Assembly (NCBI GenBank): GCA_038320345.1
Contig: JBBQED010000004.1
Coordinates: forward strand, 173,155-237,154
Origin: Bacteroidia bacterium
GTDB lineage: Bacteria > Bacteroidota > Bacteroidia > AKYH767-A > OLB10
DNA: 64,000 nucleotides
Direction: 5' to 3'
Positions 4,119 through 31,000 of the stretch are shown here, piece after piece. Both the position numbers and the translations under genes were made by a program. Position 1 is the stretch's first letter; each line of letters opens with the position of its first letter. A model generated the notes under the pieces. It was not told where the DNA came from. It searched no databases and saw nothing but the letters and a program-made list of their open reading frames with translations.

Positions 4119-4129
4119 AAATCACTTTC

Positions 4130-6561: not shown

Positions 6562-6585
6562 GCTAATATCAGGTTATTTTTCCAG

Positions 6586-7988: not shown

Positions 7989-8033
7989 TATATTAAACTA
8001 TTTTTTAATCAATTAATTTAAAATCTAAAATCT

Positions 8034-8484: not shown

Positions 8485-8640
8485 ATGGGAAACTTACTAT
8501 ATGTAGTAGCAGTAATAATGATCGTAATCTGGGCGGTAGGGTTTTTTGCCTATAGTGTCGGAAGTATCATTCATATTCTACTGGTAATCGCCTTGATTTC
8601 TATACTGCTTCGTGTAATACAAGGCAGAAAGTCTATATAA
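8485..8640 (+). CDS. lmo0937-family small membrane protein (51 aa), absent from the ORF track
   Basis: ATG at 8485 reads MGNLLYVVAVIMIVIWAVGFFAYSVGSIIHILLVIALISILLRVIQGRKSI*, which matches the widely conserved lmo0937 mini-protein family (…GGIIHILLVIAIISILLRIIQGRK…). Confidence 0.7.
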   Translation: MGNLLYVVAVIMIVIWAVGFFAYSVGSIIHILLVIALISILLRVIQGRKSI

Positions 8641-8657
8641 AACTCTAAAAAAATATT

Positions 8658-8984
8658 ATGAAAAAGATCTGCTTAATTATTCAGGTATCTATGTTGTTAA
8701 CTATCGGAAGTATAAATTCCGTTAATGCTGACAATCTAGTTACTAATCGAAACCCGATTTCTGTAGTAAAAATTAATCCTGAAACAGCGAAAGCATCAAT
8801 CTTAGTACAAAGGTTAAATGAAATTAAATCCATGAACCTTGATAATGTTAGCACATCTGATAAAAAAGAGTTAAGAAAAGAGGTAAAAAATATCAATACT
8901 GAATTAAAACATCTCGGGAATGGTTTCTACATTTCTACTGGTGCGGCCATCATTATTATTTTATTGCTAATTTTAATTCTTTAA
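8658..8984 (+). CDS. Hypothetical exported protein with a signal peptide and a C-terminal hydrophobic anchor
   Basis: MKKICLIIQVSMLLTIGSINSVNA signal peptide; the C-terminus is GAAIIIILLLILIL. Confidence 0.45.
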   Translation: MKKICLIIQVSMLLTIGSINSVNADNLVTNRNPISVVKINPETAKASILVQRLNEIKSMNLDNVSTSDKKELRKEVKNINTELKHLGNGFYISTGAAIIIILLLILIL

Positions 8985-9021
8985 CTTGTTTAAGTTGAAA
9001 TTTGAGAATATATCTACACAA

Positions 9022-9312
9022 ATGAATACAAATAAATTAATTGCCGGAATAATCGCAGGTGCTGCTGTGGGTGTTGCAATTGGCTATATTGTTAATCCCG
9101 ATAAAACTCTTCTAAAATTAAATCAATTTAGAAAAAAGGGCAAGGACGGTAAAGAAGATATTAAATTCAAATTCAATGATGTTTTAGGGAATATTTCTGA
9201 TGCTGTAGAAGCTGCAGAAGATGAAAAAGACGAACTTTTCGCAACTGGAAAGCGCAAATTTCATCAAGTAAAAAGAGAAGTAAAAAGTGCTCTTGACGAT
9301 CAGTCCATTTAG
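9022..9312 (+). CDS. YtxH-like (DUF948) general stress protein
   Basis: MNTNKLIAGIIAGAAVGVAIGYIVNPDK... followed by a charged helical tail resembles YtxH-family proteins. The ORF-track start at 8986 is probably too far upstream. Confidence 0.55.
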   Translation: MNTNKLIAGIIAGAAVGVAIGYIVNPDKTLLKLNQFRKKGKDGKEDIKFKFNDVLGNISDAVEAAEDEKDELFATGKRKFHQVKREVKSALDDQSI

Positions 9313-9608
9313 TACATATAGTTTATCAGGTAATGTTCCTGCTTTTCTCGGATAAAGGCTAGTGCTTCATAGTGAGATAGACCAACAGTTAGTAGTAATT
9401 AAAGATTCACAGAATGGACTCCTATAACCCTTCTTCAATCACTTTCCATTTAATTTATTCACTTAAAAAATCCAAATATATCGTGCTATTCTGAAAGGAT
9501 ATATAGAGATTGTTTGTTTGGTTTTCAGCAATAATAAATGTAAAAGAGGACTTATTAATTTATGCTGTTAAGAAATATTTTTATCGTAGAAACTATCAAT
9601 TATAGAAA

Positions 9609-10124
9609 ATGAAAGAGGATTCTTCCGCTTCAAAGCAAAATTTCTTTGAAAAATTATCATCAAAAGTTACTAAAGCCTCCGGCAGTACTTATGCAATAGT
9701 TTCTGCATTTAGCATTGTTATAATCTGGTTGATTTCTGGGCCCTTTGCTAACTACTCTGAGCAATGGCAACTTGTAATTAACACTGGAACAACTATCATT
9801 ACTTTTCTCATGGTGTTTCTGATTCAGAAATCACAGAATAAAGATTCTCTCGCTATTCAGTTAAAATTAAATGAATTGGTGGCTGCTAATGAAATGGCAA
9901 GTAATCGCTTAGTAGATGTTGAAAGTATGACTGAAGATGAATTGAAAATAATACATCAATACTACCATAAATTAAGTGAGATAACGAAAAGCGAAGGAAA
10001 TCTTCTTCAATCGCACTCTATTGATGAAGCTCAGAAACATCACCGTATTAAAAAAGAGAGAGCTTTGCAAGCCGCAAACAAAGCTATGAAAGAATCGGAC
10101 AAACGAATAACTGACACAAAATAA
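9609..10124 (+). CDS. Low-affinity iron permease family protein (small integral membrane protein)
   Basis: FFEKLSSKVTKASGSTYAIVSAFSIVIIWLISGPF...WQLVINTGTTIITFLMVFLIQKSQNKDSLAIQLKLNELVAA matches the conserved core of bacterial Iron_permease-family small proteins. Confidence 0.55.
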   Translation: MKEDSSASKQNFFEKLSSKVTKASGSTYAIVSAFSIVIIWLISGPFANYSEQWQLVINTGTTIITFLMVFLIQKSQNKDSLAIQLKLNELVAANEMASNRLVDVESMTEDELKIIHQYYHKLSEITKSEGNLLQSHSIDEAQKHHRIKKERALQAANKAMKESDKRITDTK

Positions 10125-10362
10125 TAATTAACGATATAAGATTTGTCTCATTACTCCGGTAAGTTAAAATAATACACTTATCAATCTCCTAGCATCGATT
10201 ATTTGTACTGCGATCATAACTTTTATGAAATCCGTAAGCTATAGAAATTCACATGAGGCACTTCCGAATTAAGCAAAATGGTAAATCAAGATGCAGCAAA
10301 GTCAGTTCATTCTGCGTTAAAGTTGTATTATAATTCTCCCAACAATTCACACTAAATATTAG

Positions 10363-11523
10363 TTGTTAATGAAGTCTTTAAAAAATATAAATAGGAAATG
10401 GAAAATTCTTTTATTTACAATTTTACTGCTAGTAATTGTTAGAATTTCACTTCCCTACATCCTACTTCATTTTGCAAATAAAACACTTGGTGAATTAAAA
10501 GGTTATTACGGGCACATTGATGATATTGATATTTTCCTCTATAAAGGAGCTTATCAAATCAAAGATTTTTATCTTGACAAAACGGATTCACTTAGTAAGA
10601 AAAATGTCCCTCTAATATCATCTAACAAAATCGATATGTCCATCGAATGGAAATCACTAATCAAAGGAAGATTAGTTGGAGAGATGCATTTTTTTAATCC
10701 CCATTTGAAGTTTACGCGCGATAAAACTGATCCAGCAGCACTTCAAAAAGACTCCAATAACTTCAGAGTTCTTCTAGATAAATTTATGCCGCTCAAAATC
10801 AATAAACTTGAATTCATCAATGGGAAAATTCAATATGTTGATCTCAATTCTACCCCAGTAGTTAATTTAGAACTCATAAAGACTAATTTATTGGCTCAAA
10901 ATCTTCTGAATGTAGAAGATACGGCTATATTACCAGCAACCATACAAGCAAGTGCTGAATTATATCAGGGCAAATTAAATCTCAATATGAAATTTGATCC
11001 TTTAGCAGTGAAGCCTACATTTGATATGAATACCACACTAACGAATACAAATCTACCTGACTTAAACAATTTTTTCAAAGCATATGCAAATTTCGACGTT
11101 AATAAAGGCAACTTTGGATTATACACTGAAATGGCAAGTAAAGACGGCAAATTCGTTGGATATATTAAGCCCATTATTAAAAACCTTGATGTAGTAGGGA
11201 AGGAAGATAAACATGATAGCTTTGTGAATAAGGTTTGGGAAGTCATGGTAGCTTCGGCTGGGATTATTCTTAGAAATCCAAATAAAAATCAAGTTGCTAC
11301 AAAAATCCAAGTGGAAGGTAGAATCGACGGTCCTGCAGTTAATCCTTGGGAAGCAATTGGAAGCTTGCTTAACAATGCTTTTATCCATGCGTTGAGTCCA
11401 GAATTAGAAAATCGTATTTCTCTTTCTTCCATCGATGAAAAAGAGAAGAAAGAAAAGAAAAACATTTTGCAGAAAATATTTGGTAAATCTAAGTCCGAAA
11501 AAAAGAAAGAAAAAGCTAAATAA
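10363..11523 (+). CDS. DUF748-like membrane-anchored protein with a Lys/Glu-rich C-terminal tail
   Basis: An N-terminal TM helix is followed by the GHIDDIDIFLYKGAYQIKDFYLDK motif characteristic of the DUF748/AsmA-like region. The tail is SIDEKEKKEKKNILQKIFGKSKSEKKKEKAK. Confidence 0.45.
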   Translation: MLMKSLKNINRKWKILLFTILLLVIVRISLPYILLHFANKTLGELKGYYGHIDDIDIFLYKGAYQIKDFYLDKTDSLSKKNVPLISSNKIDMSIEWKSLIKGRLVGEMHFFNPHLKFTRDKTDPAALQKDSNNFRVLLDKFMPLKINKLEFINGKIQYVDLNSTPVVNLELIKTNLLAQNLLNVEDTAILPATIQASAELYQGKLNLNMKFDPLAVKPTFDMNTTLTNTNLPDLNNFFKAYANFDVNKGNFGLYTEMASKDGKFVGYIKPIIKNLDVVGKEDKHDSFVNKVWEVMVASAGIILRNPNKNQVATKIQVEGRIDGPAVNPWEAIGSLLNNAFIHALSPELENRISLSSIDEKEKKEKKNILQKIFGKSKSEKKKEKAK

Positions 11524-11739
11524 AAAAACAAGGATACAGAAAAAGCCACCCCAAGTTCCAATTAAATATTTTTCGAAATAAGTTGTATTTCTTTTTCATT
11601 TCAATATAATCAATCACGGTTATTTGCTTTGTACAAATCTTGGTCAACACTTTGGGATCTCGTTAATCCCCTAAAGGGCTATCATAACACCGTTCCAACT
11701 CTACTAATATCCCTTAAAATTCAGAGAACTACTTATTCT

Positions 11740-12360
11740 CTATTTTCGAAAAACTTTATTCAACGCATCTGTTCTTGAATTTACTTGTAATTTTATATAA
11801 ATATTACGGATATGAGTACGGATTGTTTCAGGGCTCAGAAATAGCTGGTCAGCGATTTCTTTATACCGTAATCCTTTGGAGAGCAAAGCCAATATTTCTC
11901 GTTCCCGCTCTGAAAGTTTCTGTAGTTCCACATTATTTTCCTCTGAAAAAGTAAGCACGATTTTCCGTGCTATATGACTACTCATGGGAGAACCTCCTTT
12001 GGAAACATCCAATAAAGCTTCTAGAATTTTAGAAGGTTGAGTCGTTTTAGTCAGGTATCCAGTTGCTCCCGCTTTTAAAGCATTGAAAACAGAATCTGAA
12101 TCTTCAAAAGAAGTAAACATAACAAATTGAGTCAACTTGCAAAGTGGCTTAATCTCACTAATAAAGTCTATACCCGTTTTTCCACTTAAATGAATATCCA
12201 CTAGAACTACATCCAGCTCTAATAATGGCACATTCACAATGGCTTCTTCAGCGCTTTCGAAAGCATGACAACAGGAAAAACCATCGCTTCCATTGATTAA
12301 CAACATCATTCCTTCGCGAATACTTCTTTCGTCTTCTAAAATCCCTATTCTTAAATCCAT
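11740..12360 (-). CDS. NarL/FixJ-family response regulator (REC + LuxR HTH)
   Basis: REC motifs (ILEDE..., DVVLVDIHLSGKTG, TSFEDSD, KAGATGYLTK) are followed by the LuxR HTH (LSEREREILALLSKGLRYKEIADQLFLSPETIRTHIRNIYIKLQV). Confidence 0.9.
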   Translation of the reverse strand: MDLRIGILEDERSIREGMMLLINGSDGFSCCHAFESAEEAIVNVPLLELDVVLVDIHLSGKTGIDFISEIKPLCKLTQFVMFTSFEDSDSVFNALKAGATGYLTKTTQPSKILEALLDVSKGGSPMSSHIARKIVLTFSEENNVELQKLSEREREILALLSKGLRYKEIADQLFLSPETIRTHIRNIYIKLQVNSRTDALNKVFRK

Positions 12361-12411
12361 GATTCAAATGTATTTATCATTGATTAATAAACTATCACAT
12401 GAAAGTAGTAA

Positions 12412-14658
12412 TTATGAAACCACCAGTTTATCTACCGGCACAAGAATACAAACTATCACTCCTCCTGAACTATTCTTCCCGATGGAAAATTCCCCACCGA
12501 TGCCGATAATTCTATTCGTCATATTACTAATTCCATTCCCTCTAGCAACTTCATTTACAATAAGTCCGATTCCGTTATCTATAATATGAACAATGAAGCC
12601 TTCATTTTTTATTTCAATCAACATGGAAACCATAGTAGCTTGAGAATGCTTTACTATATTATTCAGACATTCTTTGACGGTCATAAATATTTCTCTGTAA
12701 CTTTCTTTCGAAAGTACAAGATCAGGAGTATGCTCAGGAAAATCAAATTGAATATTCATAGGAAACTCTTCCAGATAATCTGAAGCGAATTCACGTATGC
12801 GTGCTACAAGATTCTCCAAAGTAGTATTCTCTGGATTCAATGTCCATATCAGATCCCGCATATTATCTACAAGATCCTTTGAAGTTTCACTGATTGATAA
12901 GACCTTCTCTGTATTAGATGGGGAAAGCGCATTACTACTCACTAATAAGCTGCTTAAAAAACTAATTTTAGAAAGACCGGATCCTACATCATCATGCAGA
13001 TCACGAGCAAACCGTATTCTTTCCTTCTCTTCCGTTCTCTTAACAACAGCTGCTTTTTCAAGAACGAGCGCCAACTTTTGACGTTGAGTAGCCAAATATA
13101 TTACGAAACCTAAAAGTAAAACGATTATTACTCCAGAAATAATAATGGTGTTACGACGATTAATTTGATTTTGTTGGTCGCTAATCTCTAATGATTTGAT
13201 CCTATCATTTTGCTGCAAGGAATTTAGAACCACCTGTTGTTTCTCTGATTCATATTTATCCTGTAATTCCGCAAGCTGTCGGGTATAGGCAAGTGGTTGT
13301 AGGGTATCTTTTAAATGGTAAGCTTCCAGCAAATTTATATAGGCAGAATCAGTATTTCGTATACTATAAAAAACCTCAGACAATGATTTTCGGCAATCCA
13401 TAATTGTAGTTTTATGATTGATACTGTTAGCGAGGTCTAAAGCTTTATTTAAAAAAATAATAGCTTTTCCATACTGCTCCAATTCCCCATAAATGTCACC
13501 CAATTGTTGAAAGGTAGTGGACTCAATTAATTTATAATCTCCACCTTGAATTGTAGTCAGCGTGAGATTCGCAAAATAAATTGATTGTTGTAGTTCATTT
13601 TTTTCAAGAAAAACTCTACTCAAATTCGCATAACAAATAGCAATTCCATTACTATCACCAAGCAGCCGATAATTCTTTAATGCCCTATTATAATACAATA
13701 ATGCACTATCATCTATGGCATTCATATACCAGGCATTTCCGATATGAACTTCGGATATAGCAATGCCTGCAAGATGATGGATAGATTTAAAAATAACCAA
13801 ACTTGCCTGATGAACTTCTAAAGCTTTATCATACAATCGCTGCGATTTCAAAATCTCGCCTTTAAGATCAAGTGACAAAGCCCTGCCTTCCATATTTGCA
13901 GAATTTTCAAAAATCCGTGAGGATTCTTCACTAACTGTTATTGCATTTTTCGATTCGCCTGAACGAAGGTAGACTCTTGCTAATTGGTTTAATTCGAAAC
14001 CAGCTCGAAGTTGATTTCCTATGTTTTGGAAAATGTGAATTGCTTTTTCGAAATTCACTTTGGAAGAATCAAAGCTACTTAGGAGATAATACGTCATGCC
14101 TTTTGCGGCAAAGATTTCAGCCCAGCTTGCTGAGTCCATCCGAGCTTTAAAGTCAGTTTCTAAATTTGTAAGATTTGACAAAGCAGAATTACTTTGGTTA
14201 GTTCGTGCTTTCACAATACTTTCCAAACAAACGGCTCTGATAATTCGATTAGTGTCGCTGGCATTAATTGCAATTCGCTTAGCATTTCTTGCAGAAAGTA
14301 AAGCCTCCGCTAAATTTTTATTAAGACTATTTTCCGCTGACCTAAGTAAAGAATCAATCCTAGAATTCAACAAAACAGTACTGTTATTTGCTTGAGAATT
14401 GCCTGGGTGTGAATTCAGAAACATTAGAACTAAAAACAAAATAAGATACTTCACCCCTTTTCTATAACTCATAGTACTTGCAATTTCGGATAAGATACAA
14501 AAGATAGCAGCAATTATTTTTAAGCGCTCAATAACACTGTTGCTTAATGCTTTATGAGATATAAGTCGAAATAAATCAGAACTTCTTAAATAGAAATCAC
14601 TTTTAAAGACGCTACGATCCTGCCAAATTGTACAGTTTAACCTTCGCTTATTATGCAA
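12412..14658 (-). CDS. TPR-repeat sensor histidine kinase (NarX/DegS type: HisKA_3 + HATPase_c), partner of the adjacent LuxR regulator
   Basis: An N-terminal signal/TM segment and multiple TPR-like repeats are followed by a TM helix, a coiled coil, the H-box ARDLHDDVGSGLS and the ATPase motifs (IIDNGIGL, GNGISNM). The likely true start is the ATG at 14472 (MSYRKGVKYLILFLVLMF...). Confidence 0.85.
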   Translation of the reverse strand: MHNKRRLNCTIWQDRSVFKSDFYLRSSDLFRLISHKALSNSVIERLKIIAAIFCILSEIASTMSYRKGVKYLILFLVLMFLNSHPGNSQANNSTVLLNSRIDSLLRSAENSLNKNLAEALLSARNAKRIAINASDTNRIIRAVCLESIVKARTNQSNSALSNLTNLETDFKARMDSASWAEIFAAKGMTYYLLSSFDSSKVNFEKAIHIFQNIGNQLRAGFELNQLARVYLRSGESKNAITVSEESSRIFENSANMEGRALSLDLKGEILKSQRLYDKALEVHQASLVIFKSIHHLAGIAISEVHIGNAWYMNAIDDSALLYYNRALKNYRLLGDSNGIAICYANLSRVFLEKNELQQSIYFANLTLTTIQGGDYKLIESTTFQQLGDIYGELEQYGKAIIFLNKALDLANSINHKTTIMDCRKSLSEVFYSIRNTDSAYINLLEAYHLKDTLQPLAYTRQLAELQDKYESEKQQVVLNSLQQNDRIKSLEISDQQNQINRRNTIIISGVIIVLLLGFVIYLATQRQKLALVLEKAAVVKRTEEKERIRFARDLHDDVGSGLSKISFLSSLLVSSNALSPSNTEKVLSISETSKDLVDNMRDLIWTLNPENTTLENLVARIREFASDYLEEFPMNIQFDFPEHTPDLVLSKESYREIFMTVKECLNNIVKHSQATMVSMLIEIKNEGFIVHIIDNGIGLIVNEVARGNGISNMTNRIIGIGGEFSIGKNSSGGVIVCILVPVDKLVVS

Positions 14659-15017
14659 AAGAATCTAGGAAAAAGGGGTCATCCAAGATTTCTCGCTAGA
14701 ATCAAATTCACACTAAAGTAGTAGTGAGCCATTCCGCATAACTCATCAAAGTAAGTAAGCCATAAAAAATCTAACCCTTTTTTATAGAAAGACTCACCTT
14801 CTGAACTAACTGTTTTATTCACCTGCAAGTCTTCTTGATACTATGTGCTGCTTAGATAATTCACTGAAATTAAAGATTCACATTTAAGTAGTATAAACCA
14901 GGTCTTGTTCTTTTAAAAGGAGGTGATACTTTTAAGAAATGAAAAGTGGAACCGTTTATCACAATAAAAACGGGGCAATACCGGGAAGCCGAAGTTCCGG
15001 GAAAAAAAGAAATCCAT

Positions 15018-16643
15018 ATGAAAAGAATTCTCCAATTCAGTATTTGCATCGTGTTATTAACTTCAATAGTTAATGCACAAGAGCTAAAAGAAGTAGTACA
15101 GCCCTTAACATCAAAAGCAGCCAATGGTTATGTTTATGATATCAGAAAAGATGAAGCGGGAGTATCATTTGTAACGTATAAAATAAAAGGCGCCAAAAAA
15201 TCTGAAGAAGTATTTTATGAAGAATATAGTTTTGACAGTAATTTAAAATTTTTAGGCAGCAAGGATGTACAGGAAAAGAAAGAGCAAAAGGAAGATATTC
15301 AAAGGACATACTATTCTGCTTATGTTGGAGGAACGACCTCTTTCGATGTTCTCAGTATGAAATTAAAGCTTAACAAGGTAGTTCAGCTTCTAACTTGGAA
15401 TCATGAAAAACAAAAATATATTGCAAAAAAAACTATCTCCCGAGAGAATGTGAAACCCAGAAATGATGCTGGAAGAGTATATAACGGTTATGCCTCATAT
15501 AGTTCGGATATAGAAACTGAAAGTGATGTATTTACGATTGCTAAAGTAGAATCAAAGGATAAAAATCAAGCGGACAAATTCTTAATTCTAATGTTCAATG
15601 ATCAGCTAGAGATCAAAGAAAAGCCCATTGAAATGTCTGGGAACTACTCATTAGTATATTGTGATCACATGAAAAGTAACCATGTAATTGCAATCTTTGC
15701 TCCTGAAAAAGGGAATGGAGATCCATCCAACTACCTCTTCTTTGAATTCGATATCCAAGGAAATATTCTCAACAAAATTCCATTTAAGAGTCCGGCATCC
15801 GCTCTCCTATTGACTGCTGCATATGAAAATAATGGAAGTATTTATTTATTCGGAACTTCTGCCAAGTCCACTGAATCATTTGAAAAAGTATTCCACGAAT
15901 ATGCGCCAATATTTAATCCTGGCTACACAGAAGGTGGTGATAATCTAGTAGATTTTAAATGGAGAAAATCGCTAGAAGAAAGAATGGAAAATTTCCACCT
16001 CTTAAAATTCACTGGTAATCAAATGGTATTTTCTTCAACTACTCCTGTTGATGAATTCAAAAGTAAATTCAAAACTGCTCCTGGTGATAAAGGTGCAAGC
16101 CCTTATAAAGGAAAACGATTTATGATCGAAAACTTTTTCGTAACCCCTTCAGAAGATTATCTGCTAGCAGGACAATTAACGAGTACTGTTAATTTGGGAA
16201 CAGGAAATAAAGTTGATTCCTATGAAGATATAGTATGTTTCCAATTTGATGGGAAAGGAGCGTTGAAAGCACAATACGGTCTTGGAAAGATTAATAATGA
16301 TAAAAAGAGTGAGATTTTTCAGATGTTTCAAAATTTATATTTGTCACCTGATGGCAAAAGTATTTATTGGGAAATCCTAGAAGTAAAAGGGACGAAGGGT
16401 TATGAAGATTTTCTATCAGCATACTATGGGGTACCATCATTCTATCCTTTATACTATCCAAGAGTAGGCAAGATTGACCTAGGATCCACTTCATTAACTG
16501 CGTTTAAATCGATGGGAGAAGGAAAATACTATTTGAAAAGAGCTTTCACCAGTACCTTTGATCCTAAAGAAGGTACTGTAACTTATTTTGGTCATGATGA
16601 GGACTACAAAAAACTATGGATCGGAAAATTAATGATCCAATAA
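15018..16643 (+). CDS. Hypothetical secreted protein (~541 aa)
   Basis: MKRILQFSICIVLLTSIVNAQ is a signal peptide at the internal ATG 15018, whereas the ORF-track start at 14946 lacks one. Large globular composition with no recognised catalytic motif. Confidence 0.5.
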   Translation: MKRILQFSICIVLLTSIVNAQELKEVVQPLTSKAANGYVYDIRKDEAGVSFVTYKIKGAKKSEEVFYEEYSFDSNLKFLGSKDVQEKKEQKEDIQRTYYSAYVGGTTSFDVLSMKLKLNKVVQLLTWNHEKQKYIAKKTISRENVKPRNDAGRVYNGYASYSSDIETESDVFTIAKVESKDKNQADKFLILMFNDQLEIKEKPIEMSGNYSLVYCDHMKSNHVIAIFAPEKGNGDPSNYLFFEFDIQGNILNKIPFKSPASALLLTAAYENNGSIYLFGTSAKSTESFEKVFHEYAPIFNPGYTEGGDNLVDFKWRKSLEERMENFHLLKFTGNQMVFSSTTPVDEFKSKFKTAPGDKGASPYKGKRFMIENFFVTPSEDYLLAGQLTSTVNLGTGNKVDSYEDIVCFQFDGKGALKAQYGLGKINNDKKSEIFQMFQNLYLSPDGKSIYWEILEVKGTKGYEDFLSAYYGVPSFYPLYYPRVGKIDLGSTSLTAFKSMGEGKYYLKRAFTSTFDPKEGTVTYFGHDEDYKKLWIGKLMIQ

Positions 16644-16668
16644 AGAACGTTATCCGAAGACTTTAAAA

Positions 16669-16712
16669 AAGGCCTCATGAAAATTAATTCATGAGGCCTT
16701 AATATTTTTTTT
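16669..16712. terminator. Bidirectional intrinsic terminator between two convergent genes
   Basis: A perfect 13-bp stem aaggcctcatgaa / ttcatgaggcctt has an aattaa loop and is flanked by a T-run (ttaatatttttttt) on the plus strand and an A-run on the minus strand. Confidence 0.75.
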
Positions 16713-16728
16713 AAAATGATTGAAATTA

Positions 16729-17157
16729 CTAAGCTGGAATACTGAAATGCTCTCTAACTTTAGCTACCATTTGATTTTCCGTGAGCTTGTCGGTACTTTC
16801 AACTTTAATATGCTTAAGTTTAAAATGCTGATCTTCTGTCAAGATATTATTTAGTTCATCCTTTGCTTTCGTAGGGCCGAATAAAAAGATCGTATCATAT
16901 TCACGAAGACGATCCGCTAAAATTTTATAATAATGATGCATGATATCTTGCTCACGATTGTGCTTTTGATGCTCGTTATTTGTAGAGCGGTTATTCCCCA
17001 GACTCATACCATCACCAGATTCACCGGGAGTACGTAATTGTGATTCCTGTGAAGAGTGCACTGTTGTAATTGTAGCAGGCTCTGTAGTGATATCAATAAA
17101 ATGGGCATCTGCATGATCAAGACATAATCCGATTTTACCTTCAAAATGATTTTTCAT
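16729..17157 (-). CDS. Hypothetical protein (142 aa)
   Basis: ORF with a His-rich central patch (NNEHQKHNREQDIMHHYY). Its stop abuts the shared terminator. No family recognised. Confidence 0.4.
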   Translation of the reverse strand: MKNHFEGKIGLCLDHADAHFIDITTEPATITTVHSSQESQLRTPGESGDGMSLGNNRSTNNEHQKHNREQDIMHHYYKILADRLREYDTIFLFGPTKAKDELNNILTEDQHFKLKHIKVESTDKLTENQMVAKVREHFSIPA

Positions 17158-17506
17158 AGTTTTTAGATTTAAAAATTTAACGTAGATATATTTAAAAAGA
17201 ATTTAAGCGAAAAGACAAATGAATTTTAGCTTTCTTTAAGAGTAAAGTTAACTTAAATAATGCATAAAACGTCCTTTTTTATTAGAATCTGATTAAGATA
17301 GTCATGAAAATCATTTAAGTGTAGCAGTGATCGTCTTTCATAGCTTAAAATAGATTCAGAAAATCATCCATTATAGCCAATTTAAAATATTGCATAAAAG
17401 TTGAAACATACTTTTGAACCCGTTCAGCGCTTTAAATGCCGTCTCGGGCAATTATTATTTTCCTAAAGATTATCTATGTAATACTTTTAATTCAACAAAC
17501 TACATT

Positions 17507-17926
17507 ATGAAAACGTCAATCATTAGTTTATTCGCTGTAATTCTGGTTGCCATCACCGTTTTGCAAAGTTGCAAAAAAGATGATAATAGTCAATCAACGG
17601 CATCCACAGCAACCATCCTAAACGAAGGAACTTGGAGGGTAAGTTACTACCATGATAATAGTAGCGATCATACTAGTGAATTTACCGGTTACTCATTCAC
17701 ATTTTTCGCTGCAGGAACAATGAGTTCAATGTGCAACGGTATAATGAATACCGGTACATGGAGTTGCGATGACAGTAGCAAAGAATTTCATTGTAATATT
17801 GGAAGTACAAGTCCCTTGAGCGACCTTGACAAAGGATGGATGCTTACTTCAAAAACCAATAACGAAATCATCCTCAAAGATGATAATTCGGGGAGTTTAG
17901 AAGAACTTCATCTTACAAAAAATTAA
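17507..17926 (+). CDS. Hypothetical lipoprotein
   Basis: The internal start MKTSIISLFAVILVAITVLQSCKKDD provides a lipobox (LQSC). The ORF-track start at 17414 precedes the signal peptide. Confidence 0.5.
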   Translation: MKTSIISLFAVILVAITVLQSCKKDDNSQSTASTATILNEGTWRVSYYHDNSSDHTSEFTGYSFTFFAAGTMSSMCNGIMNTGTWSCDDSSKEFHCNIGSTSPLSDLDKGWMLTSKTNNEIILKDDNSGSLEELHLTKN

Positions 17927-17965
17927 TTTTTGGGATTAGACCATTTCCATTACACAATTCCAATA

Positions 17966-18467
17966 CTGCTGAATTCTGACAATCGCAATTTCTTTTCGAA
18001 AATATTTTTCGTTAGCTAGAAGGGAATGACTTTTCTGCTAAATTGTATTCCTTCGGAAATGTTTTTCGACCCAGCTAGAAGGGAATTACTTTTCTGCTAA
18101 ATTGTTTTCCTTCGAAAATGTTTTTCGTTAGCTAAAAGAGAATGACTTTTCTGCTAAATTGTTTTCCTTCGGAAATGTTTTTCGTTATCTAAAAGAGAAT
18201 TACTTTTCTGCTAAATTGTATTCCTTCGAAAATGTTTTTCGTTAGCTAAACGAGAATGACTTTTCTGCTAAATTGTATTCCTTCGAAAATGTTTTTCGTT
18301 AGCTAAAAGAGAATTACTTTTCTGCTAAATTGTTTTCCTTCGGAAATGTTTTTCGTTAACTAGAAGAGAATGACTTTGCTTCTGAATTGTATTCCTTCGG
18401 AAATGTTTTTCGTTAGCTAGAAGAGAATGACTTTTCTGCTAAATTGTATTCCTTCGGAAATGTTTTT
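17966..18467 (+). repeat. Noncoding tandem array of ten ~57-bp direct repeats. The consensus is ctgctaaattgtattccttcggaaatgtttttcgttagctagaagagaatgactttt, with a degenerate first copy and point polymorphisms between copies.
   Basis: Read directly from the sequence. Units begin at about 17966, 18035, 18092, 18149, 18206, 18263, 18320, 18377, 18434 and run into the terminal palindrome. All six frames of the unit contain stop codons. Confidence 0.9.
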
Positions 18468-18516
18468 CGACCCGGCTAGAAGGGAGTCACTTCGTGCCTC
18501 CCTTCTAGCCGGGTCG
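18468..18516. repeat. Perfect 19-bp inverted repeat (hairpin/palindrome) closing the tandem array
   Basis: cgacccggctagaagggag (18468-18486), loop tcacttcgtgc, ctcccttctagccgggtcg (18498-18516). The left arm is the variant end of a repeat unit (compare unit 2, cgacccagctagaaggg). Confidence 0.9.
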
Positions 18517-18524
18517 GGAATACG

Positions 18525-18556
18525 AAAACCAACCCTACGGGTTTGTTTTATTTTTT
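18525..18556 (+). terminator. Rho-independent terminator on the plus strand, downstream of the repeat array
   Basis: Stem aaaccaaccc / gggtttgttt (one mismatch) with a tac loop, followed by tatttttt. Confidence 0.55.
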
Positions 18557-18582
18557 AAAAATTTTCCTTAAAGCAAGCTTTG

Positions 18583-18629
18583 GAAAATTTTTTAAAAATA
18601 AAACCACAACTTTCGTTGTGGTTTTCGGT
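18583..18629 (-). terminator. Intrinsic terminator for tRNA-Arg on the minus strand
   Basis: On the plus strand this reads aaaccacaac tttcg ttgtggtttt, a 10-bp stem. On the minus strand it is followed by tatttttaaaaaatttt. Confidence 0.6.
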
Positions 18630-18638
18630 ATTCACCAG

Positions 18639-18712
18639 TGCACCCGAAGGGAGTCGAACCCCTAACCAACAGTCCCGGAAACTGTCATTCTATCCAATTG
18701 AACTACGGGTGC
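18639..18712 (-). tRNA. tRNA-Arg (anticodon CCG)
   Basis: The reverse complement gives GCACCCGTAGTTCAATTGGATAGAATGACAGTTTCCGGGACTGTTGGTTAGGGGTTCGACTCCCTTCGGGTGCA. It has a 7-bp acceptor stem GCACCCG/CGGGTGC, a D-arm, the anticodon loop TTCCGGG and a T-arm GGTTCGA. CCA is not encoded. Confidence 0.85.
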
Positions 18713-18828
18713 AATATTTATATCAATCGACTTTCTCTTTTTACTGTATTGATTTTGAGTAATTTAAAAGAATTTTAAATGCTCTTTTTCTTAATAGTTC
18801 GACAAAATTAATGCTTTTAACGTTTGTC

Positions 18829-18836
18829 TACCTTTG
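18829..18836 (+). promoter_or_regulatory. Bacteroidota sigma-A -7 box (TAnnTTTG) in the tacctttgcac variant, upstream of the thioesterase gene
   Basis: tctacctttgcactg lies 23 bp upstream of the ATG at 18860. The same tacctttgcac word recurs at 22326 and 42861 in front of other genes. Confidence 0.5.
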
Positions 18837-18859
18837 CACTGTTAAAACAATTGTTTGCT

Positions 18860-19381
18860 ATGAAACCTAAAAATCCTAAAGACAGTCTTGCAATTCATAC
18901 TGAAATCGTACTTCCAAATGATACTAACGTACTGGGTAACCTGATGGGTGGTCGTTTGCTTCATTGGATGGATATCACTTCCGCCATCGCTGCTCATCGT
19001 CATTGCAGTCGTATCGTTGTTACTGCTTCTGTAAATAATGTTTCTTTTAATCAACCTATCAAATTAGGTGATGTGGTAACACTTCAAGCAAAAGTATCTC
19101 GCTCTTTCAATTCTTCTATGGAAGTTTTTATTGATGTATGGGTAGAAGATAATATGCGGAATATTAAAATCAAATGCAATGAAGCAATCTTCACTTTTGT
19201 TGCAGTTGATCAACTAGGTCAGCCGATTAATGTTCCTGAATTGATTCCAGAAACAGAAGAAGAAAAATCTAGATGGGAAGGTGCACTTCGTCGTCGTCAG
19301 TTATCATTAATATTAGCAGGTAAAATGAAGCCCGCAGATGCTACTGAATTGAAAGCACTCTTTATGGGAGCAGACGCTTAA
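18860..19381 (+). CDS. Acyl-CoA thioesterase (hotdog fold, YciA/cytosolic acyl-CoA hydrolase family)
   Basis: HTEIVLPNDTNVLGNLMGGRLLHWMDITSAIAAHRH...IVVTASVNNVSFNQPIKLGDVV is the characteristic 4HBT-type thioesterase core. The start was chosen at MKPKNPKD (ATG 18860) rather than the ORF-track 18824. Confidence 0.8.
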   Translation: MKPKNPKDSLAIHTEIVLPNDTNVLGNLMGGRLLHWMDITSAIAAHRHCSRIVVTASVNNVSFNQPIKLGDVVTLQAKVSRSFNSSMEVFIDVWVEDNMRNIKIKCNEAIFTFVAVDQLGQPINVPELIPETEEEKSRWEGALRRRQLSLILAGKMKPADATELKALFMGADA

Positions 19382-22508: not shown

Positions 22509-22524
22509 CAAATCAAATCAATCA

Positions 22525-22552
22525 ATGCCCCCAACGGGGCATTTTTCATTTG
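22525..22552 (+). terminator. Rho-independent terminator after tRNA-Ser
   Basis: Stem atgcccc / ggggcat with a caac loop, followed by ttttcattt. Confidence 0.7.
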
Positions 22553-23178
22553 AAAATTTTCGCCGAGCTCGCTCGAGTGAAAATTCGAGAATGAAAATGA
22601 AAGTCGACGGCGTTGATAGGTTTGATTTAGCCCCCCTAAAGTGATTAGCGAAGTTACTCTCGTCGTAAACAACTTACCGTTGTACATTTTATTCCAAGAA
22701 TAATAACCTAGCTTAGCAATTCTGAAAATTGGTCTGAACAAATAATTATTAAGTATTTTAATACAAGAATTAAACTGCTCTCATTTCTAGATTTTCATTA
22801 TTCTGTTTCGAACCAATTCGCAACACCTCAAACTGCCGTTTGGGATTTAATTTGACAAGAGAACACAAATATTATCAGCGGAGCCGCAAATCAAAACACC
22901 GCACAGTTGGGAGCATGATACAAAGTTGGTTAGTAGATTGAATTTAGAACCACTTGTTGAACCATCGGGCAATACGGATATACCTTTTTAAATTCGCTTT
23001 TTAGAAATTTTGCCATCATAAATTTAACTTTTCGTTAAAATCGTATGAATTAAATCAACGACTCCTGTGAACTAATTTTTGACATTTAATAATTGTTTAC
23101 TTTGGCATTTCAATTGCACGCTGCCTCAGCGTTGCGATAGCTACCTTCTTCTTTCATCTTCCTCTTTATCGCTAAAAA

Positions 23179-25067: not shown

Positions 25068-28000
25068 TTACTGGGAAAGGGAGAAACGAAGTTCGATACC
25101 GGCATTAATATTAGAGGTAGGGTACGACGTCGAAATAACTGGAGTGTTGATGGTTTGCTCATAGAACAACCTGATATTTACCCTGTCGCTCATGGCATAA
25201 TCTGCAGCTCCTTTTATCGAGTATACATTCAATCCTGCGGTTGGTTGATTGATGCCTTCGAGCAATCTGCGGATAATCGTCACATTTTTACGAGCACTGA
25301 AATCAGCCGTTAAATTTAAACTGTTTCCTGCTGCACCTCTCGTTCCTCCTAAACCGAATGGCAGAATGAACTTTGGAATACGGTATCCAAAACCAAATGT
25401 TATTTCATTGCCTTTGGTTTCTGTGATCTGAACTCCAGCATACGTTAAAGATACGTTGCGGTCTTTCTTGAATTCAATTCGCGTTTGGATATTATTTTTC
25501 CATGTAACGTCAACACCGATCAAAGGTGCAAACTGTTCCGTAAGACTTGCCTGTGCTATTTCTTTACCCGGAATAAAATTTCCTCCCACATCTCTTACTA
25601 CAGGAGTTTCGGCTTCCACATAGTTAGGATTACGCTGATAGGAATTAATATTAAAAGTTGAACGATAACTATGACTCAAACTAACATTATTAAAGATCCT
25701 TTTGAAGAGGGGTAACTTAGATAAACCGTCATAGGTAATTCTCCAGTTAGGCATCGGCGTTTTCAAGAATGGACTATTTCCCACTTTACCTGGAGACTTT
25801 CCAGTGTATGCCGACAAGAATGCCATCGTTAAAACTTCTTGCTGTGTTCCAGAATAACCATCGTTATATACGATTCCGAAGGTATCAGGAGCATTGAATC
25901 CCGACGAGTTTGGATTCTCCGCAGCAAGTCGTTCAGAGTATATTTTCCTATTCGTATTAAAGGTTTCAAACACTGAACTGGTGTAGTTGTTCTTATCATC
26001 TTTTACAAAAGCCGTATTCCAAGAGATCACAGAAATACTAAAATTCCCTGTTTGATTTATTCCTTGTGATTCGAATTTAGTTCCATTGTAACGGAAAAAT
26101 TCCGAATTGTTTTTGGCATAAGTACGATTTGCTGTGAGCTCAATTTTTAATCCAGTCAATGGCTCAATAGAACTTCTTGCGGTGAAATTCTCTGTGTAGG
26201 TTCGAGCATATTGACTATTCAAGCTGGTATCATTTGTGATCCAATTATTGAGTACCGCTTTTTCGCGTAGATCTTTCTGACTACCGAATGCAAATCCAAG
26301 TCCCGGTGAATTCTGATCCAGATCTTGACCTAATAGTTGTGAGTAATTACGATAACCCGGAAGAATAGTACCGTTAGTAGTGCTATAGGTAAATCCTACA
26401 GTTTTTACCGACATGATGAGCTTACCAACAAACCTTACTCCATCAGGAATGCCTTTAGGAGGTTTGATTACAGGAGGCGCTGGCTTCTTACCACCGGCAG
26501 TATCGGCAGGGGTTTTTGGAAGATCAGGCTTTGGTGTTTTTGGCTTAGGCGGTGGTGGTGGTTTTGGCGAATTGATTTTCTTTAAATAAGGCACCTTATT
26601 ATAAAGGGTCGTCATCGTAAAGTTTCCGTTCAGCGATTTGGTATTTGCATTTTGAATCGTACTTCCCGTTCGAGGATCTGTTCCAAAGGCATTCGTATTT
26701 TTATTCAATAGAAATTGCCCTGCGGTCCAGTTATAGGTGAAGCCGTATTTCGCGTTGAGCGAGATCCAATCGGTAAGGGGAAATTTATTCAACGGTAACT
26801 GATAACTCACATTACCTGCCTGTTGATATTGTTTATTCCTTCCGAGGAAATAATTCTTACCCCAAATATTACTGTTTACCGAATCACGTTCTCCACCGGT
26901 GTCAATTTTTCCTTCCGGTTCATCCACTACAGAATAATTGCTTGCATTAAAATCTACTTTTATAGAGCGCGTTAAATCATATTTAAAATCATAAATTCTC
27001 CGCATCTCAAAATTCTTGTTGTAGAATGTATCACGGATAATATCAGCAAACCCTGTATTATTCCGGAAGAGCTTCTCTCCGTAAGTTCTGGTAACATCAT
27101 AACGGAAATTCAGACTTGTTGGAATGAAGTTGATATTGAGATCTTTTACCGGACGTAAATATTTTGATTTCAAAGCCGGAGCTTTGCCAAATGGAGCGAT
27201 ATATTTCGGTGTAGTATTGTAATTATAACCCAATGCTCCATGATGCGTTTTAGTTACATCATATTCGATATTGATATCGCGATGAAACGTTTCATCATAT
27301 CCGTAAGTCAGGTTGAAGTTTTCAATATCATACACTTTAGGTTTACCTCCACCTACACGATTCTTCTTCACATTTGTGAAGTTGATACTCTTGTTACGAG
27401 TATAATCCTGACTTCGTCGCTTTATCTCTTTTTTATTTGAATTGCTATACGCATTATCAAGAGCAGTATTAAATGGAACATCCTGATCCAATGGATCGTA
27501 TTGAGGATTACTTACCACCGTTCCATAATTCACATACATGGGAATATCGAGAGCTGCTTTTTCTGGCAGGAACTTACCGAGATATAAAGAAGAAGTTACG
27601 TTGAAAGAAGTTTCATCACTCCGTCGGCGTTCACTCACCTTTTGTTCAATTGCTCCAAAGCCTACCGTTTTATGGGTACCCGCCACCGTTAGATTACCAA
27701 TATCTGCAAGTTTGGTAGTCACCCTTGAAGTTGCAGCCCATCCTCCTTTCTTATCAAAATTAGTTAAGCGCAATTCGTTCACCCATACTTCTCCACATTT
27801 TGCTGCGCCATCATCTGTTCCAGGATTCAAAGGATTCTGTTTAGGATTACGGATCCCAATCATGATAGTCCGAACATTACTCAATGAAGGATTTCCCTTG
27901 ATGGTAATTTTATTCAAACCTTCCGCTTCAGAATAGGAATTGGTGATGTTTAATGTACCTCCAGATAATCGTACAGCATCATTTCTTGAGAGCTTGAGAT

Positions 28001-31000
28001 TAACGAATTTATCAAGATCGAGCTCCAGCAAATTTTGTTCTGGCCAGATAATTTCCGGATCAGTAGTTCCCCATGGAGTTACTTTCAGCGGAATTTCGTA
28101 TTCGTAATAGTTTTCTGTAAAATCATTTCCTACCCTTACAAAAGCAGTGAGATCTCCGTCTTTCAATGCATCTTCCACTTCAGAAGCTTCAGCATGCACA
28201 AACATTTTTAATTTTTTATACGAACGCAAATCCAGTTGCAATGTTTTGAATGCACCACGCGCATCTCCATCTTCCAAATTACAAACGCTCAATGATAAAC
28301 TCTGCTCATTAATTTGTTGAAGATTGGTTGACCCTACATTTATTTCACGATCGATACCAGGAGGAATTACATAAGGGATAGGAGAACGATTTCCGTTTTC
28401 TTCAAGACTCACCGCAGAAACATCAAACGTGGTATTCGTACTTCCGCAACCCAAACATTCACCTGGAGTAAAGAGATCATAAGCATACTTCCTCCACTCA
28501 CCACGCAGGAACTCCAGCTTTGCAAAACGCAAAACCATAGGTTCCTGATAACCCGTCATGAACATCCTGATAAAACTGATCGTATTAAATCCTTCAATAT
28601 CTCCAAACTTTCTAATATTTGGATTAGTACCTTCTATATCACGAATTGGAATTTTAAACTGATACCATGTCACATCTTTTGTTGTACCATTCGCTAATTT
28701 CCATCCTACACGAGTAATTTTATCAACGATAAAGTTCTTGCCGATTTCCATTTGTGATGGATCGATATCCACTTGATATTCATAAAACTGCTCACTTGCC
28801 TCCTGATTAAAATCTTTGTTTACATCTTCAGCATCCGGTAATGTTGTAGATGCTGTTGAATAAGATTCTGGAGATTGTCCATCAGTAGGTGAGTTACCAT
28901 CTGGCTGACTGAAATTTTTATATCGATTGAGAATACTTACTTGTTGAGCATCATAATCAGAACCACGGTAGTAGTGATAGTTATCAGAAGAAGGATCAGC
29001 TTCGTACTGAGCATAAGCAGAAGGAGAAATATTCGCACTCAAATTGTTCAAGTATCCTGAATAAAAAGAGGCTTCATTACTATTTTTTAATCCATCTAAT
29101 CCTACATCTTGATACTGTCTTGCATTAGCATTATTATCGAAAGCATAAATAATTGGGGGTTGATTTTTTGGAACATAACCCCAAACGGTATTAGTAGAAA
29201 GAGTAGTATCTCCATCTGCAGGTAATCCATTTTCATATTCCAGTTTACCATCTTTCAAGATATCCTCTGAAATATTTCCCAGATCAAAATATAATTTACC
29301 ACCTGATGTTCCCGGATCCAACTTATCACTGTTAAAAGGATCCATTAACCAGAACTGAATGAATTCAATATTTGCGGCATCAAAATCTGTGGTTTCCACA
29401 CGACGCATAATACCACCCCAACGAGAGGCTGGACTATTTAAAAATCCATCCGCAGCAACTCCAGCCGAAATCCCGCCAATAGGTTGAACATCGAAGTTGT
29501 ACGGTCCGCGCTCTCTTGGATAATATGAAATATTGAACATCGGCAGAATTACTTTCTGTCCATTCAATCCTTGCTTATTCGGGAAAATTTCGTCTTCTGT
29601 AATTTGCCGCACTAACTCATTTGAGATATCATTAGTAGTGATATGACTCGGACGAATTCCTGACGATCCATTATAAAACAAAGGATCAATTCTGTACCAA
29701 GAAAGTTTAGAACGATTAAATCCATTCGCAAGTGTTGAACTATCTGCACCAGGAATCTGACTTGTAGGTGCTGAAGCTAAGGTCCATGATCCTACGTTGG
29801 TAAGATCAATTGTAGATTGGCTTCCTTCAAAATCGTCGATATATGCTGTACCTGCGCGACCAATTGCTTTGCTATTTCCCGGAATCAAACGTGCGTATTC
29901 ACCACTCACTGTAATATTCGAAGGTTCCTTCGTAGAAATGCCCGGGAGTTTATCTATGGCTCTTGTTAACCATCGTGAATCAGTTCTCCATGTTCCATCT
30001 ACACCTACCATCGTATTAGCAATTGGTTCATCACCAACATTCACTTTAGAAGTGATCGGTCGTTCATTCAAACGAAGTACTGTTCCTCCCAGCACCAGAT
30101 CTTTATTCACCACATAATCAAAGCGACTTCCTAAAAGTGTTTTCGATTGAATACTAAACAACGAATTACTTTCGAGCGCGATATTGATCGCAGTTCCTGA
30201 ATTCAAGATACTCTGATTGATAATTTTTACGCGACCCAGATTATAATCAACAGTATAATCTACATTCTCAACCAGAGGAGCACCACCTGCAGTTACTTTC
30301 ACAGATCCTTCAGGAATATTGATTGCATTCAGTGGAATATCAGACCCAAATTTGCTGATGTAACTTCCCTTCAAACTGAATTTATTTTTCTCAGGTTGTT
30401 GCAATGCAACGGTCTTTGTAGAATCGTACAAAACTTCATACACAAACTGATCGGCTTTCGCTTGATCAATAAATTGACTTCGCAAATAACTTCCAAAAGG
30501 CTCACGCACCGGGAAAATAATTCTACCATTGGAGCTATTGATCGTTACGCCTTCAATGAAATCATATTCACCATCCGGACGAGGATCATTATTTTGATTC
30601 AATTTATCCAAATTATAAACTCTATTCAGTGGCTTCGTATAGAGATTAGTTTCTGAAGATAAAAGTGGAAGGTAGTTTAAACGGTTACCGATGGTATCTA
30701 CGTAGTACATAACATCCAAACGAAAATCCTTTTTATCAATTTGAAAACCACCTAAAGCATAGATGTTTTTCATCATCAGATCCCAGGTAGGTAATTTGGT
30801 ATTCGTAATACGACCTTTCAGCATCTTTAGATAAAGCACGCTCGTAGGGTCGATACCTGAAGTGGTTAAGTCACCGACTTTATATACTTTATTGCCGATA
30901 GTATACTCGAATGCAACACCTAATACTTCGTTATTATTCAGCGCTTGATTGAGGGAGATATAACCTAAGCGAGGATTAAAAGTGTACTCAGTTGGGGCCA

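Follow-up and report, generated by a model that had tools for sequence, protein, structure and literature searches.

Between a lipoprotein-like open reading frame (ORF) and a convergent tRNA-Arg(CCG) gene in the genome assembly of a Bacteroidia bacterium (GCA_038320345.1) lies a tandem array of 57-bp units that runs into a palindrome and then into a hairpin-rich trailer of the tRNA gene (Table 1). We examined this array and its surroundings within a stretch of 64,000 nucleotides (nt) of contig JBBQED010000004.1 (positions 173,155 to 237,154), which is called the window throughout. A first-pass annotation, made from the sequence letters, had described the locus as about ten head-to-tail repeats capped by a perfect 19-bp palindrome and a terminator. 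For comparison we used 80 syntenic loci from uncultured Bacteroidota, which were fetched via the adjacent thioesterase; L-numbered labels denote related loci and contigs.

Tandem Repeats Finder, the check that the first-pass annotation had proposed, reports a single strong array at 17995–18469, in which units of 57 bp recur 8.3 times with 90% matches and 0% indels. Its score is 757, whereas every other array in the window scores 51 or less. The 34-nt unit core gives eight matches at up to two mismatches, all of them within the array, where shuffled sequences are expected to give none. Units begin in register at 18035 (a unit of 59 nt), 18094, 18151, 18208, 18265, 18322, 18379 and 18436, and these eight full units, together with one degenerate leading unit, bring the total to about nine. 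The proposed period and head-to-tail arrangement are therefore confirmed, and the count is revised from ten to about nine.

On the plus strand each unit consists of a 34-nt filler, ctgctaaattgtattccttcggaaatgtttttcg, followed by a 21–23-nt arm, ttagctagaagagaatgac, which is a degenerate direct copy of the left arm of the terminal palindrome. The interior units are 89–96% identical to one another, whereas the units at both edges are divergent and stand nearest to the ancestral arm (CGACCCAGCTAGAAGGGAA versus CGACCCGGCTAGAAGGGAG). Specifically, the edge unit at 18067–18085 retains the ancestral CGACCCAGCTAGAAGGGAA, with two mismatches to the 19-mer palindrome arm. The variants gaatgac and gaattac alternate over six or seven units, which gives the array a higher-order period of 114 bp.

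An independent short-read contig (L001, 1.3 kb) is identical (100%) to the window over the left junction and the first 127 nt and ends inside the first full unit. Because it breaks off there, this contig corroborates the start of the array and not its copy number. Exact look-ups of four window proteins returned L001 as their sole result; among these four were three neighbouring proteins that returned nothing.

As the first-pass annotation had stated, the array is non-coding: each of the six frames carries 8–13 stops, and the longest open stretch is 45 codons. The accompanying suggestion that its transcript would fold into a string of similar stem-loops is not borne out, because dinucleotide shuffles fold just as well (z = −0.5 for each strand). 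A scan of the whole window against Rfam 15 at gathering thresholds finds only tRNAs, and a permissive scan of 17400–19000 yields only sub-threshold hairpin noise of the microRNA type. The motif TAnnTTTG, a Bacteroidota-type −7 promoter element, is absent from the array on either strand, and sigma-70-type matches in the array occur at chance level (7 versus 4.8 ± 2.1 expected). The proposal of an independent non-coding RNA is thus not supported, with no Rfam match and no TAnnTTTG motif.

The alternative proposal was that the array forms a long 3′ untranslated region (UTR) of the lipoprotein-like gene. The encoded protein carries a lipoprotein-type signal (...VLQSCKKDD) and has no Pfam match. 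No plus-strand terminator-like site was found between its stop codon and 18531, and it is therefore possible that the array is passively transcribed as a long 3′ UTR of the lipoprotein mRNA that would stop at the terminator at 18531–18556. A conserved relationship between gene and UTR is unlikely, because homologues of the protein (at most 42% identity) occur in unrelated contexts without tRNA-Arg or a comparable neighbour.

The array occupies a single locus in the 64-kb window, where neither the unit core nor the palindrome recurs. Unit and palindrome have no match among GTDB representative genomes (one per species) or in IMG/VR, phage records and plasmid records, and JGI metagenomes gave one chance match, on an unrelated GC-rich contig (L131). 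The sole other occurrence of the unit in the searches is the short-read contig L001, which breaks inside it. A dispersed family of repetitive extragenic palindromes (REPs) or miniature inverted-repeat transposable elements, which the first-pass annotation had named as the finding that would make this an ordinary mobile repeat, is thus rejected for the window and the collections searched. Furthermore, a tblastn search with a protein of the REP-associated tyrosine transposase (RAYT) type from L008 finds no RAYT in the window.

The units are contiguous and repeat in full without unique spacers, in agreement with the earlier judgement that this is not a clustered regularly interspaced short palindromic repeat (CRISPR) array. 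Pfam scans of the genes between positions 95 and 25031 reveal no Cas domains; they find two-component regulators, an outer-membrane protein, a thioesterase, a GT9 glycosyltransferase, TatD and an asparaginase. When the array is compared by blastn with the 80 syntenic loci, no match appears at E ≤ 0.01. Homology to relatives is limited to a hairpin core of about 40 nt, the detection of which needed a profile.

Table 1 Features of the locus, sister modules in the window, and tandem arrays at tRNA 3′ flanks
Feature	Location	Strand	Description
Lipoprotein-like ORF, 139 aa	17507–17926	+	N-terminus MKTSIISLFAVILVAITVLQSCKKDD
Degenerate distal unit, ~69 nt	17966–18034		Retains ...cgttagctagaagggaatgactttt; seen in the in-register layout
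Seven full units and start of the eighth	18035–18467		First unit 59 bp; Tandem Repeats Finder, core matches, register
Palindrome left arm (last array unit)	18468–18490		tRNA-sense (−) strand reads gtgactcccttctagccgggtcg
Palindrome right arm (segment X)	18494–18516	−	Conserved in relatives as ..cGGCtAGaaGGGa..
tRNA-Arg trailer module	18517–18637	−	Outer stem gaataccgaaaacc/ggttttcgtattc around three hairpins
tRNA-Arg(CCG)	18638–18712	−	ARAGORN; Rfam RF00005 at 60 bits
Sister module of tRNA-Ser(GGA)	22510–22690	+	Three-hairpin cluster, variant apex gccgagctcgctcgag, then gattagcgaagttactctcgtcg; sequence, fold, profile match
Sister hairpin cluster of tRNA-Cys(GCA)	45131–45260	+	Perfect inverted repeats of 19 nt and 15 nt, apex GCCAAGCTCGCTTGAGC
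tRNA-Arg array	window		Period 57 bp
tRNA-Arg array	L002		Period 129/198 bp
tRNA-Arg array	L003		Period 130 bp
tRNA-Arg array	L015		Period 168 bp
tRNA-Arg array	L017		Period 168 bp
tRNA-Arg (TCG) array	L026		Period 126 bp
tRNA-Ser array	L002		Period 118 bp
tRNA-Ser array	L013		Period 182 bp
tRNA-Ser array	L020		Period 139 bp

The palindrome and the tRNA-Arg trailer

The perfect 19-bp palindrome at the array end is present as described, and it extends to 23-nt arms that are 96% complementary (one mismatch) around a 3-nt loop. The region between the arms forms a mini-hairpin of the pattern NNN-GNA-NNN (cac-gaa-gtg). The left arm retains gactcccttc, which corresponds to the T-loop end and the 3′ strand of the T-stem of tRNA-Arg, and it occupies a position homologous to the one at which relatives carry a copy of the tRNA 3′ end. 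In an alignment of this 10-mer to the tRNA tail, 14 of 1,000 shuffles scored as high or higher.

The trailer that separates the palindrome from the tRNA gene contains three hairpins. Hairpin 1 (18625–18600, minus strand) is terminator-like for tRNA-Arg and is followed by ATTTTT. The central hairpin (18545–18604) is long and AT-rich, with palindromic arms at 18545–18567 and 18582–18604 and the apex aaagcttgcttt. Hairpin 3 (18531–18543), with its T run TGTTTTATTT reaching 18556, is terminator-like on the plus strand. The terminator after the array and the AT-rich hairpin of the first-pass annotation are thus both real. A GC-rich hairpin followed by a T run is found at both terminator-like sites, which belong to the trailer and not to the array units.

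Palindrome and trailer together fold far beyond shuffled sequences (z = −10.7 on the minus strand and −12.1 on the plus strand). Indeed, the strongest hairpins of the entire window are those in the flanks of tRNA-Arg and tRNA-Cys.

A tRNA-linked module and recurrent arrays in relatives

Read in the orientation of the tRNA, the related loci share one layout: a trailer of about 110–140 nt, with three hairpins and an outer stem, is followed by segment X and then by a copy of the tRNA 3′ end. The copies of tRNA-Arg(CCG) comprise the last 16–20 nt of the tRNA, from the interior of the T-loop to the acceptor end, and lie 141–161 nt downstream of it in eight species (L008, L015, L017, L018, L019, L020, L023 and L079). 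Copies of tRNA-Ser(GGA) lie at +143 to +244 in four species (L010, L013, L015 and L079). Over 17 nt these copies show 0–4 mismatches to their tRNA, where the best background match has 6–9; no comparable copy was found downstream of the five tRNA-Leu(CAA) genes checked. A direct repeat of the tRNA 3′ end downstream of an intact tRNA, which is the mark of an attachment-site (att) scar, is thus present in the relatives.

Each copy tracks the tRNA variant of its own genome, as seen in CCCTTC, CCCGCC, CCCGTC and, in L023, GAGTGC. The L023 copy (at +161 nt) reads cccGAAgagtgcac where the tRNA reads cccTTCgagtgcac, a 3-nt inversion in a copy that elsewhere tracks its tRNA; the inversion abolishes pairing with X.

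Segment X (..cGGCtAGaaGGGa..) is conserved and stands directly 5′ of every tRNA-Arg copy, and the tRNA-Ser copies are preceded by an X-type loop of like design. Two alignments of X (A1 and A2) have invariant GGC, A, G, GGG and CCC columns, and the loop carries the NNN-GNA-NNN mini-hairpin, often as GCGAAGC. In the tRNA-Arg modules, X and the copy form a hairpin in which 82% of cells pair, compared with 29–45% in slid controls. The covariation score of this hairpin is 0.223 versus 0.135, a value reached by none of 500 shuffles in an alignment of only 11 related sequences. Its mini-hairpin shows changes on both sides, with G-U pairs on the tRNA-sense strand. The tRNA-Ser modules retain only the T-like stem, without acceptor-like pairing.

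The trailer of the relatives has the same three hairpins within an outer stem in every species, and the stem sequences differ. Compensatory changes are visible, for example, between aaatTtgTc/gAcaAattt in L018 and aaatCtgCc/gGcaGattt in L019. The central hairpin has a conserved apex, CCAAGCTYGCTTGAG, which is common to the tRNA-Arg, tRNA-Ser and tRNA-Cys modules; of 18 matches to this apex in 0.9 Mb, 16 are situated in tRNA flanks, among them the tRNA-Cys flank of the window. As a separate observation, the apex motif GCCAAGCTTGCTTGAGC also occurs in many IMG/VR viral contigs (L104–L130), some from human-microbiome samples. There it sits in a different conserved hairpin scaffold, gtgcaagtgagcgcaga...ctatgccgagcgcagcc, which is in tandem in L114 (6920–7060), and these contigs have no Rfam match.

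The window holds two sister structures at other tRNA genes. Downstream of tRNA-Ser(GGA), the hairpin cluster is followed by an X-type loop, gattagcgaagtta, and then by a degenerate copy of the T-loop and T-stem of this tRNA (ctctcgtcg). The tRNA-Cys flank carries a mini-hairpin, gcacttcgtgc, which reverses the one found in the loop of the tRNA-Arg palindrome, and no clear copy of a tRNA end was found within 45131–45260.

Homology between the window palindrome and this module was recovered without using the window itself. An nhmmer profile built from relatives only has its best match in the 64 kb at 18517–18479 (minus strand, E = 9e-4). The same profile also matches array units, weakly matches the stretch 18015–18030 of the degenerate unit, and weakly matches the tRNA-Ser flank at 22643–22665 (E = 0.14). 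Because the relatives-only profile picks out the window palindrome, the 10-mer shared with the tRNA reflects real homology. The first-pass annotation had read this short match as a hint of a tRNA-associated remnant, a reading now strengthened, as the 10-mer lies in the segment homologous to the relatives' hairpin with its tRNA 3′-end copy.

Some relatives lack all or part of the module. L044 and L007 carry tRNA-Arg without it, and L071 has a module without the X loop and copy; all three are too distant for a clean comparison. We found no description of such a module in Rfam or in the literature searched. The tRNA-specific module with its tracking copy, the GNA mini-hairpin at the junction and the recurrent formation of arrays all appear to be undescribed in these sources.

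Tandem arrays recur at this kind of site (Table 1). The 0.86 Mb examined contain 19 arrays with a period of at least 50 bp; nine of them are no more than 300 nt from a tRNA 3′ end, and such positions account for about 4% of this sequence. The two closest relatives, L002 and L003, have their arrays in the same place as the window, directly 3′ of tRNA-Arg(CCG), and their units contain gggattagcttcgcttttcccttctagccg, which aligns with the loop and right arm of the window palindrome (gggagtcacttcgtgcctcccttctagccg). Each unit of the tRNA-Arg array in L015 opens with the last 19 nt of the tRNA. At tRNA-Ser, L015 and L020 carry tandem modules with the same X and different trailers, and L010 and L079 carry one module, a difference that is suggestive of occupied and empty sites.

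Several further observations concern these arrays. Ten N at 5259–5268 of L002 mark a scaffolding gap inside its tRNA-Arg array, where the copy number is uncertain, and L001 and several other loci end at or near such arrays. Just past the lipoprotein stop codon in the window, ttgggattagacc at 17931–17945 shares the 10-mer ttgggattag with the unit junction ttgggattagcttcgc of L002 and L003. This sequence could be the eroded remains of an earlier junction on the distal side of the array, or the match may be due to chance.

Origin of the array and competing explanations

We favour, with about even confidence, the explanation that the array is a lineage-private local amplification that started from the hairpin arm in the tRNA-Arg 3′ flank, and is not an array of functional RNAs. 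The direct repeats and the hairpin of the module would predispose the locus to tandem expansion. In relatives, the distal arm of that hairpin consists of the tRNA 3′-end copy, of which the window retains only gactcccttc; the remainder of its arm is the exact complement of X. The hairpin was probably 'perfected' to a 19–23-bp palindrome when the complement of X replaced the acceptor part of the copy, as would be expected from template-switch correction of a quasi-palindrome. The distal arm and 34 bp of flank would then have been multiplied about nine times, probably by slipped-strand mispairing or unequal crossing-over. The homogeneous interior, the divergent edges and the alternation of gaatgac and gaattac suggest unequal exchange that proceeded partly in two-unit steps. 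The array would probably be a passive by-product of this process, with a copy number that is assumed to be unstable.

The module from which the array would have started resembles an old att-type scar or an integrase-less miniature element, because its layout fits the far junction (attR type) of an element that recombined in the T-loop of the tRNA. Partial tRNA copies are an established mark of integration into tRNA genes (PMC9897764), and in Bacteroides the NBU2 integrase is directed to tRNA-Ser genes at their 3′ end (PMC6692515). These precedents, along with the fact that the copy tracks its tRNA even in L023, argue for an att origin, which we propose from sequence comparison.

Several points weigh against amplification from an att-type scar. 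No integrase or recombinase was found beside the modules in Pfam scans of 22 window proteins and 17 flanking proteins of relatives, which covered the window, L002, L004, L010, L015, L026, L044 and L079. Pattern scans of IMG/VR revealed no phage or viral contig with the X/tRNA junction, giving matches at chance level or none. Furthermore, the interval from tRNA to copy is only about 150 nt, and its layout is kept though the flanking protein is 76–90% identical; this conserved short interval is more suggestive of a structure under maintenance than of a scar in decay. In the core site of a tyrosine recombinase, inverted repeats are expected to lie 6–8 nt apart, whereas those at the junction are 11–13 nt apart. 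Within the window, the direct similarity between unit and tRNA tail amounts to one 10-mer. Similarity between the 34-nt filler and the tRNA trailer does not reach significance, and a derivation of the filler as a collapsed trailer was rejected on that ground. Finally, the instability of the copy number is an assumption, and the array may instead function as a spacer, a 3′ UTR or a protein-binding platform.

It is tentatively possible that the module represents a previously undescribed class of element in uncultured Bacteroidota, defined by a three-hairpin trailer with the apex CCAAGCTYGCTTGAG, an X segment with a GCGAAGC-type mini-hairpin and a tracking copy of the cognate tRNA. Such an element could be a self-contained att-only unit of 130–200 nt that is moved and stacked at tRNA-Arg and tRNA-Ser by a T-loop-specific recombinase. 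It could also be a trailer RNA that is freed by RNase Z and RNase P through its built-in tRNA minihelix. On either option, the 57-bp array would be a runaway derivative of the element.

A related proposal, which we consider unlikely, extends the first option to the arrays: units and modules would be integrase-less, att-only miniature elements inserted repeatedly by a T-loop recombinase encoded elsewhere, and arrays would result from accretion, not slippage. The junction does lie at the same T-loop position in tRNA-Arg and tRNA-Ser (ttcg followed by AATCCC versus agct followed by AATCCC), and the copies follow lineage-specific changes of the tRNA, one of them in the acceptor of L023, also in cases where they can no longer pair with X. 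The tandem modules at tRNA-Ser in L015 and L020, compared with the single modules in L010 and L079, would fit accretion, as would the two divergent modules in L023. The DNA distal to the modules is also variable, with a HipBA toxin–antitoxin pair in L079 and, in the window, 18 kb of reduced GC content. However, no recombinase is present near any module examined, no viral or plasmid counterpart was found, and the inverted repeats are not spaced as a classical recombinase core site would require. The 57-bp units of the window contain neither X nor trailer and thus are not complete modules. Their high identity, the 114-bp period and the divergent edges suit local amplification better.

The corresponding RNA proposal holds that the module is a functional tRNA-sense RNA, a structured trailer that ends in a tRNA-like minihelix with acceptor-like and T-like stems and a discriminator (CCA being present or absent). 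RNase Z would release this trailer from the tRNA, and RNase P would cleave it at the minihelix. Under this model, the window array would extend the transcript in repeated, degenerate form or, on the opposite strand, serve as a long regulatory 3′ UTR. The preservation of the three-hairpin layout despite sequence divergence, with the compensatory changes between L018 and L019, is consistent with such a role, as is the sharing of the apex CCAAGCTYGCTTGAG by the modules of three tRNAs. The covariation of X and copy, with G-U pairs tolerated only on the tRNA-sense strand, points the same way, and L018 encodes CCA after the copy and not after the tRNA itself. Nevertheless, hairpin 1 is a good intrinsic terminator right after the tRNA in the window and in L023, and production of the RNA would therefore require read-through. 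The missing acceptor-like pairing in tRNA-Ser modules, and a copy in L023 that follows the tRNA and not X, also speak against this model. Both DNA strands fold equally well, no Rfam family matches, the array has neither excess structure nor a promoter motif, and its association with the lipoprotein gene is not conserved. We therefore regard this model as decidedly unlikely.

That the array is a contingency locus, whose copy number tunes expression of the lipoprotein or of tRNA-Arg by phase variation, is very improbable. Near-identical tandem units between a surface-lipoprotein-like gene and a tRNA would suit such a locus, but the array lies downstream of both convergent genes and not in a promoter or reading frame, its 57-bp period far exceeds that of typical contingency repeats, and the related arrays follow the tRNA, not a particular neighbouring gene. 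A mis-expanded or chimeric assembly is hardly credible: short-read assemblies do break at the array (L001 in its first unit) and the L002 array contains a run of N, but the units differ by ordered, non-random variants with distinct edges, an independent assembly matches the left junction at 100%, and analogous arrays occupy the same kind of site in many independent metagenome-assembled genomes.

Resemblance to known systems and neighbouring features

The module shares several traits with the attR-type tRNA fragments that integrative elements leave behind and with the tandem accretion of such elements, among them integrase-less cis-mobilizable elements (CIMEs). The 3′ end of an intact tRNA recurs downstream as a direct copy beginning in the T-loop, only certain tRNAs are hit (Arg-CCG and Ser-GGA, not Leu-CAA), tandem units are possible and the DNA beyond is variable. 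It differs from such elements in that its interval is about 150 nt, not kilobases, no integrase was found, the layout is conserved over many species and a hairpin partner, X, flanks the copy. Moreover, the window copy has turned into a perfect palindrome, of which only one arm and 34 bp were amplified.

The array itself is close to a minisatellite and is a candidate variable-number tandem repeat (VNTR), with a constant head-to-tail period of 57 bp, a homogenized interior, divergent edges and a two-unit pattern; it is also non-coding and private to one lineage. Unlike typical members of that class, it is seeded at a conserved tRNA-linked hairpin, and relatives carry independent arrays with other periods.

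REPs, bacterial interspersed mosaic elements (BIMEs) and REP doublets (REPINs), which are mobilized by RAYT (Y1) transposases, are likewise hairpin-rich intergenic elements at gene 3′ ends that are able to cluster. In L008, a RAYT-like gene with REP-like hairpins follows directly after tRNA-Ser modules. In contrast to these families, however, the window unit and palindrome are not dispersed, no RAYT is encoded in the window, and the module is tied to tRNA ends and contains tRNA-derived sequence. The L008 gene encodes an IS200-like Y1 transposase of the RAYT type (9872–10426, within a region at 9484–10860 right after two tRNA-Ser trailer modules), flanked by the REP-like hairpins ctttagtttgcaactaaag and cctgagttgcaaactcagg and by a partial duplicate of its own 5′ end. 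The same locus carries a 99-bp array of 4.8 copies that repeats the 3′ end of this gene, a homologue of which is present only in L034.

Among tRNA-like processing elements, such as tRNA 3′ external transcribed spacers and RNAs of the mascRNA type, a structured trailer likewise separates a tRNA from a mimic of the acceptor and T-arm, and judging by its sequence the mimic considered here could be cut by RNase Z and RNase P. It is unlike them in that several species have a terminator ahead of the trailer and that an acceptor-like stem is missing from the tRNA-Ser versions. CRISPR arrays also consist of regularly spaced repeats with a partly palindromic segment, but here there are no unique spacers, no cas genes nearby and no leader.

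Taken alone, the array is probably a private, neutral minisatellite, and a minisatellite beside a tRNA is ordinary. Its value is as a marker that leads to the hairpin-rich module at certain tRNA 3′ ends in a poorly studied clade of Bacteroidota, and it is this module that deserves attention: its partial tRNA copy changes in step with the real tRNA, and tandem arrays repeatedly start from the module. Should the module prove to be a minimal integrative element, it would illustrate how little sequence a site-specific mobile unit needs and would explain why tRNA 3′ flanks become hotspots of repeats at which short-read assemblies break. Should it prove to be an RNA, it would provide a case from bacteria of a processing signal that mimics a tRNA. 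In practical terms, partial tRNA copies and arrays of this kind cause mis-annotation and contig breaks in metagenome-assembled genomes.

The DNA on either side of the array differs in composition, with a GC content of 31–35% at positions 1–18000 and 36–40% at 18000–64000 of the window. Most products of the left block are two-component and signalling proteins or small proteins without assigned function. Four of its proteins have no tblastn match among the 80 related loci, and no integrase was seen in it; this block may be an accessory region that abuts the tRNA-Arg flank. In L079, a HipB-like helix-turn-helix protein and a HipA toxin are encoded at 3377–4917, directly distal to the tRNA-Arg modules, and this pair truncates the second module. 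L015 has different small ORFs in that place. Elsewhere in the window, the minus strand at 25068–32324 contains a very large ORF of 2,418 aa.

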